12,357 nucleotides of DNA, taken from IMG/VR virus record IMGVR_UViG_2703718790_000029, one strand, 5' to 3'. This DNA comes from a virus (taxonomy: Duplodnaviria; Heunggongvirae; Uroviricota; Caudoviricetes). The position numbers were made by a program, and so were the translations under genes. The notes under the pieces were generated by a model. It made no database searches and was not told the origin of the DNA. It was given only the letters and a program-made list of their open reading frames with translations. Position 1 is the first letter of the stretch. Each line of letters opens with the position of its first letter. This document shows positions 5,184 to 12,357 of this stretch, piece by piece.

Positions 5184-5381
5184 ACCATTTATTGGATTAA
5201 TTCAATATTCTTGCTGTAGGGGTATAGCCGAGGCCACCAAAGCCCGGAGGTGGTGAAATAAAACCGGGCACAACACGAAGGCGCATTTCCGGTATCCATA
5301 AAGAGTCGGTCTTGTCTGTTAAATTTAAATGGTGGGAGTGCGCCTCCGGTTGTGAATAACAACACTGCTGTGTGTAGTCTT

Positions 5382-5428
5382 GGCGGCATCAGTTTTTTCT
5401 TGAAGTTCGACTGATGTCCGCCCTTTTT
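5382..5428 (+). terminator. Intrinsic terminator-like hairpin
   Basis: GGCGGCATCAG (5382-5392) pairs with CTGATGTCCGCC (5411-5422), followed by CTTTTT (5423-5428). Confidence 0.55.
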
Positions 5429-5603
5429 AAAGTGAATTTTGTGATGCGGTGAATGCGGCTAAGCGCACGCGGCACAGTTAAAAGTCATGTTAGTCCTTAT
5501 TGGTTTGGGTGGGAAAGCCGACTGTAATTGTTAACTGGTTGCAGTCACCTGGAGGCACCAGGCACCGCATCAACAAAGTTCATTTGTAAAAATGGAGATA
5601 ATT

Positions 5604-5825
5604 ATGATTGCACATCACTTCGGAACTGATGAAATACCACGTCAGTGTGTGACTCCTGGTGATTATGTTCTTCATGAAGGCCGGACATATATCGCCTCGG
5701 CAAACAATATTAAAAAGCGAAAACTTTATATTCGTAACCTGACTACAAAAACATGCATTTCTGACTGCATGATTAAAGTCTTCCTCGGTCGTGATGGTTT
5801 ACCTGTAAAGGCGGAGTCATGGTGA
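5604..5825 (+). CDS. kilR: KilR-like cell-division inhibitor
   Basis: GGAG at 5594-5597 before ATG 5604; 73-aa product; sits upstream of ydaE-racC-recE as in Rac. Identity from size, order and partial sequence recollection. Confidence 0.6.
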
Positions 5826-5995
5826 TGACTAAGAAAATAAAATGTGCTTACCACCTTTGCAATAAAGGAATTGAAGAAAGCAAAAGCATTAAAAGACCAC
5901 TTCATTTCATGCGTGGAGTTATCCCAACGACGGAAATGAAAAAATATTGTAGTGAAAATTGTGCCGAAAAAGACCAGATGGCACACGAACTTTAA
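5825..5995 (+). CDS. ydaE: YdaE-like small zinc-binding protein (56 aa)
   Basis: Not in the ORF track (under 60 aa). Its ATG at 5825 overlaps the kilR stop (ATGGTGATG); product has two Cys pairs (KCAYHLC ... YCSENC); 56 aa matches Rac YdaE. Confidence 0.55.
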   Translation: MTKKIKCAYHLCNKGIEESKSIKRPLHFMRGVIPTTEMKKYCSENCAEKDQMAHEL

Positions 5996-6068
5996 TTAAC
6001 TGACTATGCGAAACTGAATTTATGCCAGCAATGGCAGGGATTCGCTCAACCTTAATTAAGGAGAAAAA

Positions 6069-6344
6069 ATGATTACCAATTATGAAGTCACTGTTGTAAC
6101 TACCGATGACATTGTTCACGAGGTTAATCTGGAAGGAAAGCGTATTGGCTACGTGATTAAAACAGAAAATAAAGAAACCCCATTCACTGTGGTTGATATT
6201 GACGGTCCATCAGGCAACGTAAAAACACTTGATGAAGGTGTCACAAAAATGAGTCTGGTTCACATCGGAAAGAATCTGCCCGCAGAAAAAAAAGCCGGAT
6301 TTCTGGCAACTCTGATTGCAATGAAATTAAAAGGTGAAATCTGA
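6069..6344 (+). CDS. racC: RacC-like protein (91 aa)
   Basis: AAGGAG at 6057-6062 before ATG 6069; 91 aa, immediately upstream of recE as in Rac. Confidence 0.55.
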   Translation: MITNYEVTVVTTDDIVHEVNLEGKRIGYVIKTENKETPFTVVDIDGPSGNVKTLDEGVTKMSLVHIGKNLPAEKKAGFLATLIAMKLKGEI

Positions 6345-6442
6345 AAAAAGAAAGCCTGCACAACGTGCAGGCCTGAGTGAAGAACCTGGGACATTTATTC
6401 ATCACTCGCAGTAATTTTAATCTGAGTTGAGGTTAAAAAACA

Positions 6443-8960
6443 ATGAGCACAAAACCACTCTTCCTTTTACGGAAAGCGAAAAAATCATCCGGTGAACCTG
6501 ACGTCGTCCTGTGGGCAAGCGACGATTTTGAATCAACCTGTGCCACTCTGGACTACCTGATCGTTAAGTCAGGTAAAAAACTGAGCAACTATTTTAAAGC
6601 TGTTGCCACAAATTTTCCTGTCGTTAATGACCTTCCCCCTGAAGGTGAGATCGATTTTACCTGGAGTGAACGCTATCAACTCAGCAAAGACTCCATGACC
6701 TGGGAACTAAAACCGGGAGCAGCGCCAGACGACGTTCACCATCAGGAGGATGCACCGGAAACCGAAGAACCGACGGGAGGCCAGGAAGAAAACGCGCAGG
6801 CAGACGCCCACGAGGATTGCCAGGATTGCGAAGTCTCTGTAGCCACTTTGCGGTTCACACAGCGTCTTCTGCACATTTTTACGTATGCAGCCGGGGATCG
6901 AAAATACCTGCATCATGCCACCCGTGAACAACGCAAACACATTACTGCTCTTGAGATGGATCAGGAAAACAGCTATGTCCAGAATCTGCTGTTGGCCATA
7001 CGCAGCATGGCAGAACCGACAACTCTGGATAATGCCGCCCTGCTCCGCCTGACTGATGCAATTAAGGCAGTGTTCTCTATCACGAAAAAACATCAGCCCT
7101 ATGAATTTAAGAATTTCATTTCAGCCTGGCTGGATACCGAACACATTGATCGCGGTCTTCTGACAAAAGAATGGCGAAAAGGGAATCGTGTTTCACGCAT
7201 CACTCGCACGGCTTCCGGTGCTAATGCTGGCGGCGGGAACCTCACCGATCGCGGCGAAGGTTTCGTCCACGATCTGACATCACTGGCGCGCGATGTAGCC
7301 ACTGGCGTACTGGCCCGTTCAATGGACGTGGACATCTATAACCTTCATCCGGCACACGCTAAACGCATTGAGGAAATTATCGCTGAAAATAAACCACCCT
7401 TTTCTGTTTTCCGCGACAAATTCATCACCATGCCTGGCGGGCTGGATTATTCCCGCGCCATCGTGGTTGCGTCCGTGAAAGAAGCACCAATTGGGATCGA
7501 GGTCATCCCCGCACACGTCACTGAATATCTGAACAAAGTACTGACTGAAACCGATCATGCCAACCCTGATCCGGAAATCGTGGATATTGCCTGCGGTCGC
7601 TCCTCGGCCCCGATGCCGCAACGAGTAACAGAAGAAGGAAAACAGGACGATGAAGAAAAACCACAACCATCTGGCGCAATGGCAGATGAACAGGCAACGG
7701 CTGAAACAGTGGAACCGAATGCAACTGAACATCATCAGAACACGCAGCCGCTGGATGCTCAGTCACAGGTAAATTCTGTTGATGCGAAATATCAGGAACT
7801 GCGGGCAGAACTCCATGAAGCCCGGAAAAACATTCCATCAAAAAATCCTGTCGATGCCGATAAATTGCTTGCTGCATCACGTGGTGAATTTGTTGACGGA
7901 ATTAGCGACCCGAACGATCCGAAATGGGTTAAGGGGATCCAGACTCGCGATTCTGTGTACCAGAACCAGCCAGAAACGGAAAAAATCAGCCCGGATGCGA
8001 AACAACCTGAGCCAGTAGTGCAACAGGAACCGGAAATAGTCTGCAATGCCTGCGGTCAGACTGGCGGGGATAACTGCCCTGACTGTGGTGCGGTGATGGG
8101 CGACGCAACATACCAGGAAACATTCGGTGAAGAGAATCAGGTTGAAGCTAAGGAAAAAGATCCGGAGGAAATGGAAGGCGCTGAACATCCGCACAATGAG
8201 AATGCTGGCAGCGATCCGCATCGCGATTGCAGTGATGAAACTGGCGAAGTCGCAGATCCCGTAATCGTAGAAGACATAGAGCCAGGTATTTATTACGGAA
8301 TTTCGAATGAGAATTACCACGCGGGTCCCGGCGTCAGTAAGTCTCAGCTCGATGACATTGCTGATACTCCGGCACTGTATTTGTGGCGTAAAAATGCCCC
8401 CGTGGACACTACAAAGACAAAAACGCTCGATTTAGGAACCGCTTTCCACTGCCGGGTACTTGAACCGGAAGAATTCAGTAACCGCTTTATCGTAGCACCT
8501 GAATTTAACCGCCGTACAAACGCCGGAAAAGAAGAAGAGAAAGCGTTTCTGATGGAATGCGCAAGCACAGGAAAAACGGTTATCACTGCGGAAGAAGGCC
8601 GGAAAATTGAACTCATGTATCAACGCGTTATGGCTTTGCCGCTGGGGCAATNNNNNNNNNNNNNNNNNNNNNNNNNNNNNNNNNNNNNNNNNNNNNNNNN
8701 NNNNNNNNNNNNNNNNNNACGGTTATGAAGCACAGTTTGGCGTGCTGCCAACTTTCGTTTTTCTGGTTGCCAGCACAACTGTTGAATGCGGACGTTACCC
8801 GGTTGAGATTTTCATGATGGGCGAAGAAGCAAAACTGGCAGGCCAGCAGGAATATCACCGCAATCTGAGGACCCTGGCTGACTGCCTGAATACCGATGAA
8901 TGGCCAGCTATTAAAACGTTATCACTGCCCCGCTGGGCTAAGGAGTATGCAAATGACTAA
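6443..8960 (+). CDS. recE: RecE exonuclease VIII, interrupted by an assembly gap
   Basis: Long acidic N-terminal region and a C-terminal nuclease domain (...[36 protein letters not shown]...[17 protein letters not shown]...). The post-gap reading ends ...[10 protein letters not shown] at 8960 and overlaps the recT start (ATGACTAA). Frame across the gap cannot be verified. Confidence 0.8.
8652..8718. other. Assembly gap (67 N)
   Basis: Run of N characters inside recE. Confidence 0.99.
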
Positions 8961-9762
8961 GCAACCACCTATCGCAAAAGCCGATCTGCAAAAAACCCAG
9001 GGAAACCGTGCACCAGCAGCAGTAAAAAATAACGACGTGATCAGCTTTATTAATCAGCCATCAATGAAAGAGCAACTGGCAGCAGCTCTCCCACGCCATA
9101 TGACGGCTGAACGAATGATACGTATCGCCACCACAGAAATTCGTAAGGTTCCGGCGCTAGGAAACTGTGACACCATGAGTTTTGTCAGTGCGATCGTTCA
9201 GTGTTCACAGCTCGGCCTTGAGCCAGGTAGCGCCCTCGGCCACGCATATTTACTGCCTTTTGGTAATAAAAACGAAAAGAGCGGTAAAAAGAACGTTCAG
9301 CTAATCATTGGTTATCGCGGCATGATTGATCTGGCTCGCCGTTCTGGTCAAATCGCCAGCCTGTCAGCCCGTGTTGTCCGTGAAGGTGACGAGTTTAGTT
9401 TTGAATTTGGCCTTGATGAAAAGTTAATACACCGCCCGGGAGAAAACGAAGATGCACCAGTGACCCACGTCTATGCTGTCGCAAGACTGAAAGACGGAGG
9501 GACTCAGTTTGAAGTTATGACGCGCAAACAGATTGAACTGGTGCGCAGCCAGAGTAAGGCTGGTAATAACGGGCCATGGGTAACTCACTGGGAAGAAATG
9601 GCAAAAAAAACGGCTATTCGTCGCCTGTTTAAATACCTGCCTGTCTCAATTGAAATCCAGCGTGCAGTATCAATGGATGAAAAGGAACCACTGACAATCG
9701 ATCCGGCAGACTCCTCTGTATTAACCGGGGAATACAGTGTAATCGATAATTCAGAAGAATAA
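8953..9762 (+). CDS. recT: RecT single-strand annealing protein (269 aa)
   Basis: AAGGAG at 8939-8944 before ATG 8953; product [18 protein letters not shown]... matches Rac RecT as recalled over its full length. The ORF-track start at 8896 is an upstream extension. Confidence 0.9.
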
Positions 9763-9818
9763 TTCAGCCTGGCGGTGTAATGCACCGCCAACGTGAGACA
9801 GTTTTTATGACAAAAATT

Positions 9819-10013
9819 ATGAGATATGACGATGTTAAACCATGTCCGTTTTGTGGTTGTCCATCTGTTACAGTGAAAGCAATTTCAGGATATTACCGGG
9901 CAAAATGCAACGGATGCGAATCCCGAACTGGCTATGGTGGAAGTGAAAAAGAAGCACTCGAAAGATGGAATAAACGAACTACTGGAAATAATAATGGAGG
10001 TGTTCATGTATAA
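9819..10013 (+). CDS. ralR: Lar/RalR-like restriction-alleviation protein (64 aa)
   Basis: Zinc-ribbon motifs CPFCGC ... CNGCES; position between recT and xis as in Rac. Alternative start at ATG 9807. Confidence 0.6.
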   Translation: MRYDDVKPCPFCGCPSVTVKAISGYYRAKCNGCESRTGYGGSEKEALERWNKRTTGNNNGGVHV

Positions 10014-10194
10014 AATAACTGCCACTATTGAAAAAGAAGGTGGCACTCCTACTAACTGGACAAGATATTCAAAATCTAAATTAACGAAATCAGAATGCGA
10101 AAAAATGCTCTCAGGGAAAAAAGAAGCAGGCGTGTCCAGAGAGCAGAAAGTAAAGCTGATAAATTTTAATTGCGAGAAACTTCTGTCCTCGTGA
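10006..10194 (+). CDS. YdaC-like small protein (62 aa)
   Basis: GGAGG at 9995-9999 before ATG 10006, which overlaps the ralR stop (ATGTATAA); sits between ralR and xis as ydaC does in Rac. Confidence 0.45.
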   Translation: MYKITATIEKEGGTPTNWTRYSKSKLTKSECEKMLSGKKEAGVSREQKVKLINFNCEKLLSS

Positions 10195-10300
10195 GTTGCA
10201 TTATATACAAATTAGAACTTCATAGCTGATTATTAAAAATCAACCACACCCGCCAGTATTCTGTATATTTACTGGCGGTCATATCGTAAGAGGTATGGCA

Positions 10301-10582
10301 ATGAATCTTGTGACACTCAAAACGTGGGGAAAACTCAGATATCCGGATAACCCACCATCAATATCAACGCTGAGACGATGGGCAAGGAATGGAAACATTT
10401 ATCCTGCACCTGAACTACACGGGAGGAGTTACAGGGTGGTTCCGGAAGCTTTCTATATCAACCCAAATAAGGTTGATACCGATATAACACACCATCAGCC
10501 TAATGGGCGACAAGGGAGAGACAGTCCGTTACTGGAGAAGTTAAAACATGCAGCGGAAAAAATACGATCCCAATTTACCTAA
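10301..10582 (+). CDS. xis: Excisionase (Xis)
   Basis: Small basic protein immediately upstream of int, overlapping it by 35 nt; AAGAGG at 10288-10293 favours ATG 10301 over 10295. Confidence 0.7.
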   Translation: MNLVTLKTWGKLRYPDNPPSISTLRRWARNGNIYPAPELHGRSYRVVPEAFYINPNKVDTDITHHQPNGRQGRDSPLLEKLKHAAEKIRSQFT

Positions 10583-11663
10583 AAACTTAACATATCGAAG
10601 GAGGGACAAAGCATATTACTGGCGCAACCCTCTGACGAAAGAAGAATTTACACTAGGTAAAATTTCAAGAAGAGATGCAGTAGCGCAGGCAATTGAAGCA
10701 AATCATTATATATACAAAAACTACTCTCCTGCTGCCTTAATTGAAAAACTAAAAGGGTTCGACTCATTTACTATGGCAGACTGGATTGAACGTTACAAAA
10801 CGATTCTTATAAGGAGAAAAGTGTCCAGAAATACTTATAAAATTCGGGTAAATCAACTGGAGACAATAAAAGAAAAATTAGGAGGGGTTTTACTGACAGA
10901 AATAACCACTCGCCATATTGCCGAGTTTCTTGATTTGTGGATTGAAGGAGGGAAAAACACGATGGCAGGATCAATGCGTTCTGTGTTATCTGATATGTTC
11001 CGCGAGGCCATTGTTGAAGGACGTATATCTCAAAATCCAGTAACGCCAACAAGAGCACCGAAAATAGTAGTTACAAGAGAACGGCTGAAACTAAAGACAT
11101 ACAACTGCATCAGGGAGGCAGCAGATCAACTTCCGACATGGTTCCCATTAGCTATGGACTTAGCCCTTGTAACAGGACAACGTCGCGAAGACATAACAAA
11201 TATGCGGTTCAGTGAGATTTATGATGATCGTCTCCACATCAGGCAAATTAAGACAGGAATGATGATTGCTATCCCCCTGTCACTCAGCCTTCCTGTCGCT
11301 GGTTTACGACTTGGTACAGTAGTTGAACAGTGCCGCATGGTAAGTAGGGGGGATTATCTAATCAGTGCCGGGATTAGAAAAAACAGCCCTGACGGCAGCA
11401 TTCACCCGGACGGCCTGACAAAGAAATTTGTCGCAGCCAGAAAATTAACAGGTATCCAGTTCAGTGAAAACCCACCAACTTTTCACGAGATCAGAAGCCT
11501 GGCTGGACGATTGTACAAAGAAACATGTGGGGAAGAATTTGCTCAACGTCTACTTGGCCACACATCGGAGAAGACAACAAAAATGTATCTTGATGAGAGA
11601 GAAAAAACGTACTACTGCTCTGATTTTAACGTAAATGGATTGTTAAATGTGTTTTGGTTGTGA
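10548..11663 (+). CDS. int: Lambda-family tyrosine integrase
   Basis: N-terminal arm-binding-like region ([27 protein letters not shown]); catalytic-region motifs [23 protein letters not shown] and a C-terminal Tyr in [10 protein letters not shown], paralleling lambda Int as recalled. Confidence 0.9.
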
Positions 11664-11690
11664 TATAACCAAAAAAGACCGGAATACAGA

Positions 11691-11712
11691 AATTCGAGTA
11701 AATTTCGAGTAA
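11691..11712 (+). repeat. Tandem ~11-bp repeat (ATTTCGAGTAA x2) in the P'-arm region; candidate arm-type Int sites
   Basis: AAATTCGAGTAA followed by ATTTCGAGTAA, between the int stop and the inferred core. Confidence 0.3.
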
Positions 11713-11754
11713 TTTCGGGGAGACGTTTGCAACTAATTGATTTTAAATACAATT

Positions 11755-11777
11755 AAAAAAAGACCGAATACGATTCC
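11755..11777. other. Putative attL core (3'-terminal ~23 nt of sdsR)
   Basis: Placed from the recalled report (Balbontin et al. 2008) that the last ~23 bp of ryeB serve as a phage attachment site. The exact crossover cannot be set without the other prophage end or an unoccupied site. Confidence 0.4.
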
Positions 11778-11857
11778 TGTATTCGGTCCAGGGAAATGGC
11801 TCTTGGGAGAGAGCCGTGCGCTAAAAGTTGGCATTAATGCAGGCTTAGTTGCCTTGC
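11755..11857 (-). ncRNA. sdsR: SdsR (RyeB) small RNA
   Basis: Revcomp of 11755-11857 reads GCAAGGCAACTAAGCCTGCATTAATGCC...CTGGACCGAATACAGGAATCGTATTCGGTCTTTTTTT, matching SdsR as I recall it, including the 10-bp terminator stem and U-tract. Confidence 0.7.
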
Positions 11858-11986
11858 CCTTTAAGAATAGATGACGACGCCAGGTTTTCCAGTTTGCGTG
11901 CAAAATGGTCAATAAAAAGCGTGGTGGTCATCAGCTGAAATGTTAAAAACCGCCCGTTCTGGTGAAAGAACTGAGGCGGTTTTTTT
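11760..11986 (+). ncRNA. ryeA: Possible RyeA/SraC antisense RNA (ends approximate)
   Basis: RyeA is known to be antisense to and longer than RyeB. A plus-strand promoter-like TTGCAA (11727-11732) ... TACAAT (11748-11753) and the terminator at 11948-11986 would bound a transcript of about 230 nt. Inferred, not directly supported. Confidence 0.3.
11858..11900 (-). promoter_or_regulatory. Candidate sigma-S-type promoter of sdsR
   Basis: Revcomp of 11865-11871 reads CTATTCT, resembling the extended sigma-S -10 (CTATACT), a few nt upstream of the inferred 5' end. Confidence 0.4.
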
Positions 11987-11990
11987 ATTG
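11946..11990. terminator. Bidirectional intrinsic terminator
   Basis: AACCGCC (11948-11954) pairs with GGCGGTT (11975-11981), extended by GTTCT/AGAAC; A-run 11943-11949 on one side and T-run 11980-11986 on the other. Confidence 0.7.
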
Positions 11991-12015
11991 GAAATCAAAA
12001 GGCTATTTTAGGTAA

Positions 12016-12357
12016 TTAACAGAGTTTTTCAGCTCGTTCTATAAACGGTGCCAGACTCATTTTTTCGCCGGGATTGTTAGGATCATCAATCTGAATCACC
12101 GAAATGGGTTGGGCTTTAGTCTTCCCACTGGCAACTTCCTTTTGTGCGATATCGTTTAAAGGATACTGCACGAGGGTACTTGGGTTAATGACATACAAAG
12201 CATTACCCGGTCTGCAAGTCAGCATCACCTCTTCGCGATTAAACGCCCATTTGTCTTTACCCACTTCAAAACGACTGACGGTAATCACCTGCGGTGCAGC
12301 CAGCGCCGCTGCAGAACTGGTGAGTAACAGAAACGTCAGAATACTTTTTTTCATCAT
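12016..12357 (-). CDS. yebY: YebY-like small secreted protein (host gene)
   Basis: 113-aa ORF with an N-terminal signal peptide ([22 protein letters not shown]); start at the window edge. Matches my recollection of E. coli YebY, which neighbours the ryeA/ryeB locus. Confidence 0.65.

Follow-up and report, generated by a model that had tools for sequence, protein, structure and literature searches.

A lambdoid prophage with a Rac-like early region joined to the Escherichia coli chromosome at the sdsR (ryeB) terminator

IMG/VR virus record IMGVR_UViG_2703718790_000029 (Caudoviricetes) is a stretch of 12,357 nucleotides (the window) that runs from prophage genes through an integrase gene (int) into the small RNA gene sdsR (ryeB). 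Positions 11664-11860 are very probably (about 0.93) the int-proximal junction of a lambdoid prophage of ~49 kb that entered the chromosome by Int-mediated recombination inside the sdsR terminator; by the lambda convention this junction would be attL (B-O-P'). The phage attachment site (attP) has the final ~26 bp of sdsR in a version of its own, which differs at two bases and holds the U-tract and descending stem arm of the terminator; Int would exchange strands within 11 bp common to attP and the bacterial site (attB), leaving sdsR complete and terminated by a hybrid hairpin as stable as that of K-12. The 91-bp arm between int and sdsR may offer an integration host factor (IHF)-type site and three arm-type repeats to the N-terminal domain of Int, and the whole xis-int-attP module, unrelated to the IntR/ttcA system of the Rac prophage, is joined to a Rac-like recET-ralR early region. 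This kind of attachment site is already known from Salmonella, and the E. coli case is a further instance of it; the 11-bp crossover block, the lambda-like layout of the arm, the joint with Rac-like DNA at 10244, the size of the clade of sdsR-targeting integrases and a frameshift in int are refinements (Table 1).

The first-pass annotation had reported an intact SdsR-like gene on the strand opposite int, with its terminator facing int, and this observation is confirmed, far beyond chance, with the gene lying where it had been placed. Rfam family SdsR_RyeB (RF00111) matches 11854-11755 (-) over the full length of the model (1-100/100; 118.1 bits versus a gathering score of 38, E = 4.4e-23), the antisense family SraC/RyeA (RF00101) matches 11751-11895 (+) with 179.1 bits, and a consensus scan identified the intrinsic terminator of sdsR, GGACCGAATACAGGAATCGTATTCGGTCT then TTTTTTT, at 11789-11761 (-). 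Alignment with E. coli K-12 gave 100% identity over 11770-12114, with similarity gone left of 11754, and because of this identity the body, seed and promoter region of sdsR are taken as chromosomal. The gene order yebY, sdsR and antisense ryeA is also that of K-12, where the empty site reads pphA-ryeA/sdsR-yebY (sdsR annotated at L001 5105-5208 and ryeA at L001 5067-5338). The expectation that integration would leave sdsR intact is confirmed, the gene being complete, with one correction: the phage has supplied part of the last 26 bp, in which 11760 and 11769 depart from the K-12 sequence. At the resulting hybrid 3' end an A-U pair is found versus G-U in K-12, UCUUUUUUU replaces UCUCUUUUU, and the run of seven U is uninterrupted; the terminator fold has the K-12 value, -15.8 kcal/mol.

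The window contains one prophage end, and the pphA-side end was read in a proxy genome, E. coli E2865. Complete genomes of Shiga-toxin-producing E. coli, e.g. E2865 and O26 strain RM10386, match the window at 100% identity everywhere except in a run of N. In E2865 the prophage spans the interval from pphA to sdsR and has a full lambda-like late region; the effector gene nleG7 lies on the pphA side. A duplicated core from the 3' end of ryeB had been anticipated at this other end and is present there: AAAAAGAGACCGAACACGATTCCTGT (E2865 L003 21994-22019) and AAAAAAAGACCGAATACGATTCCTGT in the window are copies of a 26-bp core, which takes in the final 23 bp of sdsR and 3 bp more, with two mismatches between them and 49,365 bp apart. 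At the pphA side, K-12-type sequence continues through ...AAAAAGAGACCGAACACGATTCCTGT and is followed by TTTCGTCAACAAAC..., and in the source genome this junction is predicted to read ...GACCGAACACGATTCCTGTTTTCGTCAAC... straight after K-12-type sequence; DNA left of 11755 in the window is unrelated to the K-12 chromosome. The two phage arms are found contiguous in a free-phage record, PP818812.1 (int 97% identical to the window int at the DNA level and 98% at the protein level), where attP (L004 1085-1330) consists of the window arm, the core and the far arm of E2865; an excised circle of the present prophage would be expected to read ...GATTCCTGTTTTCGTCAAC... at its attP junction.

The unoccupied pphA-sdsR-yebY locus of K-12 gives an empty attB that fits a four-way alignment of attB, attL, attR and attP, in which G/A at 11760 and C/T at 11769 segregate with the bacterial and phage arms. 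On this alignment strand exchange must have been confined to ACGATTCCTGT (11 bp), because it is the only block identical in all four att sequences. The block corresponds to the 7-nt terminator loop GATTCCT (11772-11778) with two stem base pairs on each side, and the stem arms, GACCGAATAC and GTATTCGGTC (11762-11771 and 11779-11788), form a perfect inverted repeat. As in lambda and in integrases with tRNA gene targets, the loop may be the overlap region and the stem arms the inverted core-type sites bound by Int.

The 91 bp between the int stop codon and the 3' end of sdsR are phage DNA, since they are part of attP. Three tandem repeats in this arm lie 53-85 bp from the loop centre (11775), versus 52-81 bp for P'1-P'3 in the lambda sequence, and are candidate arm-type Int-binding sites like these, judging from position and conservation; an IHF consensus match 33-45 bp from the loop centre (lambda H', 31-43 bp) is, on similar grounds, a candidate H'-like bending site. 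The IHF match is also read at the same place in the sequence of a Salmonella relative (L008, OK490361.1). At its outer edge the arm carries a partial second copy of the left half-core (AAAAAAGACCGGAATACAG), which many related phages, divergent ones among them, keep in their arms; the idea that this copy is a relic of an earlier tandem insertion was rejected, since the attP of the free-phage record includes it. A promoter-like sequence in the arm (TTTGCA-16-TACAAT, 11726-11753, +), upstream of the ryeA body, is not claimed as a phage promoter for ryeA, this arrangement being no commoner than in shuffled sequence and not conserved in the Salmonella-type arm.

Int has the domain structure of the lambda enzyme, with Arm-DNA-bind_1 (PF09003, E = 1.8e-6), Phage_int_M (PF22022, E = 4.9e-10) and Phage_integrase (PF00589, E = 3.7e-16) all above Pfam cut-offs, and is 38% identical to lambda Int and 41% to HK022 Int. 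The catalytic residues R212, K235, H313, R316, H338 and Y347 align with R212, K235, H308, R311, H333 and Y342 of lambda.

Several points weigh against the interpretation of the junction as the product of lambda-type integration at this site, or against parts of it. The far end comes from a proxy genome, identical to the window across its length apart from the N, rather than from the source genome, and within the 11-bp identical block the exact 7-bp overlap is not fixable. For the arm, the IHF consensus has two matches versus 0.69 expected, with 37 of 200 shuffles doing as well, and the repeat motif ATTTCGRG (one mismatch allowed) shows no enrichment, either in the window or at the far-end locus. 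Near the 3' end of int (11625-11663) a 1-nt deletion (GTACTACTGC versus GTACTTACTGC in 21 related loci) replaces the family ending ...EKTYLLL*, its LLL giving way to 16 unrelated residues, so that the C-terminal tail is not intact; and the E2865 prophage contains an IS66-family element and has frameshifts in its tape-measure and replication genes.

These last defects also raise the possibility, which we consider distinctly less likely than not, that the junction is a fossil, i.e. that the prophage arrived by the Int mechanism and the present copy, no longer able to excise, now forms a fixed island boundary. The change in the tail starts just after the residue aligned with lambda W350, and this part of the lambda Int tail modulates catalysis; in addition, a minority of the int-carrying E. 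coli genomes (38 of 228) have the 371-aa allele, the common allele encoding 355 aa. However, the copy retains its full set of six catalytic residues and an intact xis, in the att DNA both cores, the arm repeats and the IHF site are undamaged, and defects in virion genes are no bar to excision.

Placement of the prophage beside sdsR by homologous recombination or chance, rather than by Int, is very improbable. Lambdoid prophages of pathogenic E. coli do recombine extensively, the Rac-like block of the window being one example, but the junctions here are precise to the base and bounded by a short duplicated core, and the flanking polymorphisms segregate as for a crossover inside the 11 bp. The distribution of the module among 5,426 complete E. 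coli genomes also speaks against this route: pphA-sdsR-yebY is uninterrupted in 5,191, int and the arm of the window are present in 228, and int, sdsR and yebY are contiguous in 228. From these equal counts (the two sets were not intersected) we take the int/att module to be located at sdsR alone. Furthermore, among the IMG/VR matches listed, 77 of the 78 viral contigs in which the core is followed by sdsR carry a same-strand integrase of the same clade. That sdsR is phage cargo and the phage inserted elsewhere, as adjacency alone and the carriage of small RNA or tRNA genes by some phages might suggest, has next to no probability and is ruled out by the free-phage attP, which has the 26-bp core only and no Rfam match to SdsR or RyeA, and by the K-12 identity of 11770-12114, which continues into yebY in chromosomal order, with pphA flanking the other prophage end.

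Table 1 Features of the window around the int-proximal prophage junction.
Feature	Position	Strand	Evidence and remarks
Rac-like early-left block: kilR, ydaE, racC, recE, recT, ralR/RalA, rcbA-like DUF1187	5209-10244		blastn
xis, excisionase	10295-10582	+	Pfam Exc PF07825, E = 6.5e-14; RefSeq excisionase in E2865; overlaps int start
int, lambda-type tyrosine integrase, 371 aa	10548-11663	+	three Pfam domains
Phage att arm, 91 bp	11664-11754		contiguous with far arm in PP818812.1 attP; no K-12 similarity
Partial second copy of left half-core, AAAAAAGACCGGAATACAG	11671-11690	+	direct repeat D1 with 11756-11766; in attP
Three tandem 11-bp repeats, AAATTCGAGTA, AATTTCGAGTA, ATTTCGGGGAG	11690-11722	+	repeat family D2; motif matches at 11691, 11702, 11712
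Candidate H'-like IHF site, AATCAATTAGTTG	11730-11742	-	exact match to WATCAANNNNTTR
Duplicated att core, 26 bp	11755-11780		2 mismatches to pphA-side copy and K-12 attB: 11760 A vs G, 11769 T vs C
Predicted crossover block, ACGATTCCTGT	11770-11780		sole block identical in attB, attP and both junctions
sdsR (ryeB)	11755-11858	-	complete; Rfam RF00111; extent by K-12 annotation register, offset 6650; last 26 nt span att core
ryeA (sraC), chromosomal body	11770-11988	+	K-12 annotation, Rfam RF00101; now downstream of int, same strand
yebY, chromosomal flank	12016-12357	-	Pfam DUF2511, E = 4.8e-45; RefSeq annotation

The genomes carrying the prophage belong mainly to O26, O103 and O111 Shiga-toxin-producing lineages and make up ~4% of the complete E. 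coli genomes, in which the boundary of the element can now be annotated correctly and the att core narrowed to 11 bp. A scan of species-representative genomes with the Int protein gave no more than two close relatives (Shigella and E. coli) and no diversity across genera, which came instead from searching IMG/VR for exact matches to GACCGAATACGATTCCTGT (at least 120 loci). Among the matches listed, the Int homologues of the core-then-sdsR contigs are 46-100% identical to that of the window, and the distance from the end of their genes to the core is mostly 48-158 bp, with 328-1,304 bp in four cases; at least 13 further contigs have an Int relative and the core followed by a flank other than sdsR, for which attP and tandem insertion are both possible. 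Three tandem repeats occupy the same position in nearly all listed arms adjoining Int relatives (49-100% aa identity), with the repeat type varying by arm group (TTCGAG, TTCGGG, TTCGTG, TTCGGA or TTGGTG). This pattern is as would be expected for arm-type sites evolving with their integrase, a comparison made by arm group and not tabulated against Int identity. One exception is IMG/VR locus L059, where the 85 bp between two copies of AAAAAAGACCG are deleted and the arm repeats and IHF site are gone. The Salmonella element L008 lies next to a sopE-type gene and has a frameshifted Int (69% identical) and the same attP layout. Its record (OK490361.1, 'Salmonella phage ZC-S1_prp') is 19.6 kb, circularised, and includes a gene for a SopE-type exchange factor; the element appears to be what is left of an island at the Salmonella ryeB site, not a complete phage. 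PP818812.1 is deposited as 'Actinobacillus phage vB_Apl-pPE4' and assigned to Actinobacillus pleuropneumoniae; its int/attP module shows 97% identity to that of the E. coli prophage, its att core is that of enterobacterial sdsR, and the host assignment looks doubtful.

The first-pass annotation had further proposed that the integrase is not that of Rac, a Rac-like gene set having been paired with a different int/att module, and the comparison with K-12 bears this out. Int has no similarity to the K-12 Rac IntR (BLASTP, E = 1.9), and blastn identity to K-12 Rac DNA (92.9-96.5% in the Rac-like block, with Pfam matches to Exonuc_VIII, RecT, Lar_restr_allev and DUF1187) ends at 10244 (L007 4503), which places the mosaic joint with the xis-int-att module at ~10244/10245, just before xis. 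RalR/RalA, the type I toxin-antitoxin pair known from Rac, occupies 9819-10194, close to the left side of the joint; the RalA RNA (10012-10190, -; 219 bits over the full Rfam model) overlaps both the rcbA-like DUF1187 gene and the 3' end of ralR. Within the block, a run of 67 N in recE (8652-8718) stands for 201 bp in E2865 and other complete genomes, and the listed recE open reading frame (6443-8728, 761 aa) is thus an artefact of the gap, recE of E2865 encoding 883 aa.

The closest precedent is PhiW104 of Salmonella, which, according to Balbontin et al. 2008 (J Bacteriol 190:4075) as summarised in PMC7380047 and PMC3333887, has its attachment site in the last 23 bp of ryeB and changes ryeA; PMC7380047 reports lower ryeA and higher ryeB expression in lysogeny. 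The two elements share a site in the last ~23 bp of ryeB and internal to ryeA, a rebuilt small RNA and replacement of the 5' part of ryeA, and the ryeA/ryeB hot spot is used repeatedly in Salmonella, a picture that the attP layout of L008 fits. They differ in host (E. coli here, mainly O26/O103/O111) and in gene content, int/att here being combined with Rac-like recET-ralR DNA and nleG7 lying at the far end. The comparison is with the published description of the PhiW104 site, and the link to this group on the side of the integrase is an indirect one through L008. The literature searched contained no paper on this site in pathogenic E. coli. The principle was previously described for Salmonella, so that the present case extends the catalogue and leaves the understanding of such sites unchanged.

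With lambda, the system shares a heterobivalent tyrosine integrase of arm-binding, core-binding and catalytic domains, the R-K-H-R-H-Y set, the overlap of xis with int, and an int-proximal arm with an IHF consensus and three adjacent repeats of ~10-11 bp at distances agreeing within 1-4 bp. In contrast, the proteins are only 38% identical, the target is the sdsR terminator instead of the gal-bio attB, the core is a near-identical 26 bp with an 11-bp exact block, an additional half-core is present at the outer edge of the arm, and the arm repeats are of TTCGRG type versus C/AAGTCACTAT in lambda. Likeness to Rac is restricted to the block from kilR through ydaE, racC, recE, recT and ralR/RalA to rcbA (93-96% DNA identity), whereas Rac itself has IntR/XisR at ttcA and the present prophage has an unrelated Int, a position between pphA and sdsR and a full lambda-like late region. 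Integrases that use the 3' ends of tRNA and tmRNA genes (Williams 2002, cited in PMC3603311) also target the stem-loop of an RNA gene that survives through a phage-supplied 3' end, with crossover in or around a 7-nt loop between symmetric stem arms. The target here is instead the rho-independent terminator of an Hfq-binding small RNA, not an anticodon loop or T-loop, and the locus is bidirectional, with the antisense ryeA disrupted.

In K-12, ryeA starts 38 nt beyond the 3' end of sdsR, and its promoter and 5' end consequently stay at the pphA side after integration. From the sequence and published K-12 work, ryeA would be cut from its sigma-70 promoter and first ~50-64 nt, which would be left at the pphA-side junction reading into the prophage. 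In E2865 (L003 21910-23464) the severed ryeA promoter and 5' end face the prophage, with nleG7 ~800 bp downstream on the same strand. As pphA is reported to be mostly transcribed by read-through from the sdsR promoter (PMC6610125), the gene, now moved 49 kb from that promoter, would likewise be uncoupled from it. By analogy with PhiW104, these lysogens may show lower ryeA and higher ryeB expression. Results obtained in K-12 on the SdsR/RyeA/pphA circuit need not hold in these pathogens, because SdsR ends in a hybrid hairpin, ryeA lacks its own promoter and 5' end, and pphA is uncoupled.

The geometry of the junction also allows a more speculative proposal, to which we attach only a small probability, that prophage control and the sigma-S small-RNA circuit are coupled in both directions. 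No terminator was seen between int and the co-oriented ryeA body, so transcription of xis-int would enter ryeA and might generate a RyeA-like antisense RNA that depletes SdsR. Conversely, read-through of the sdsR terminator, which normally gives pphA mRNA, would in stationary phase produce an RNA antisense to int and xis. The conserved half-core at the edge of the arm could serve such control or be an extra Int site.

The few other interruptions of the pphA-sdsR-yebY interval that were inspected are IS insertions in prophage-free genomes (NZ_CP051158.1 and NZ_CM128592.1), namely ISApl1 just before the 3' end of sdsR, and IS1.

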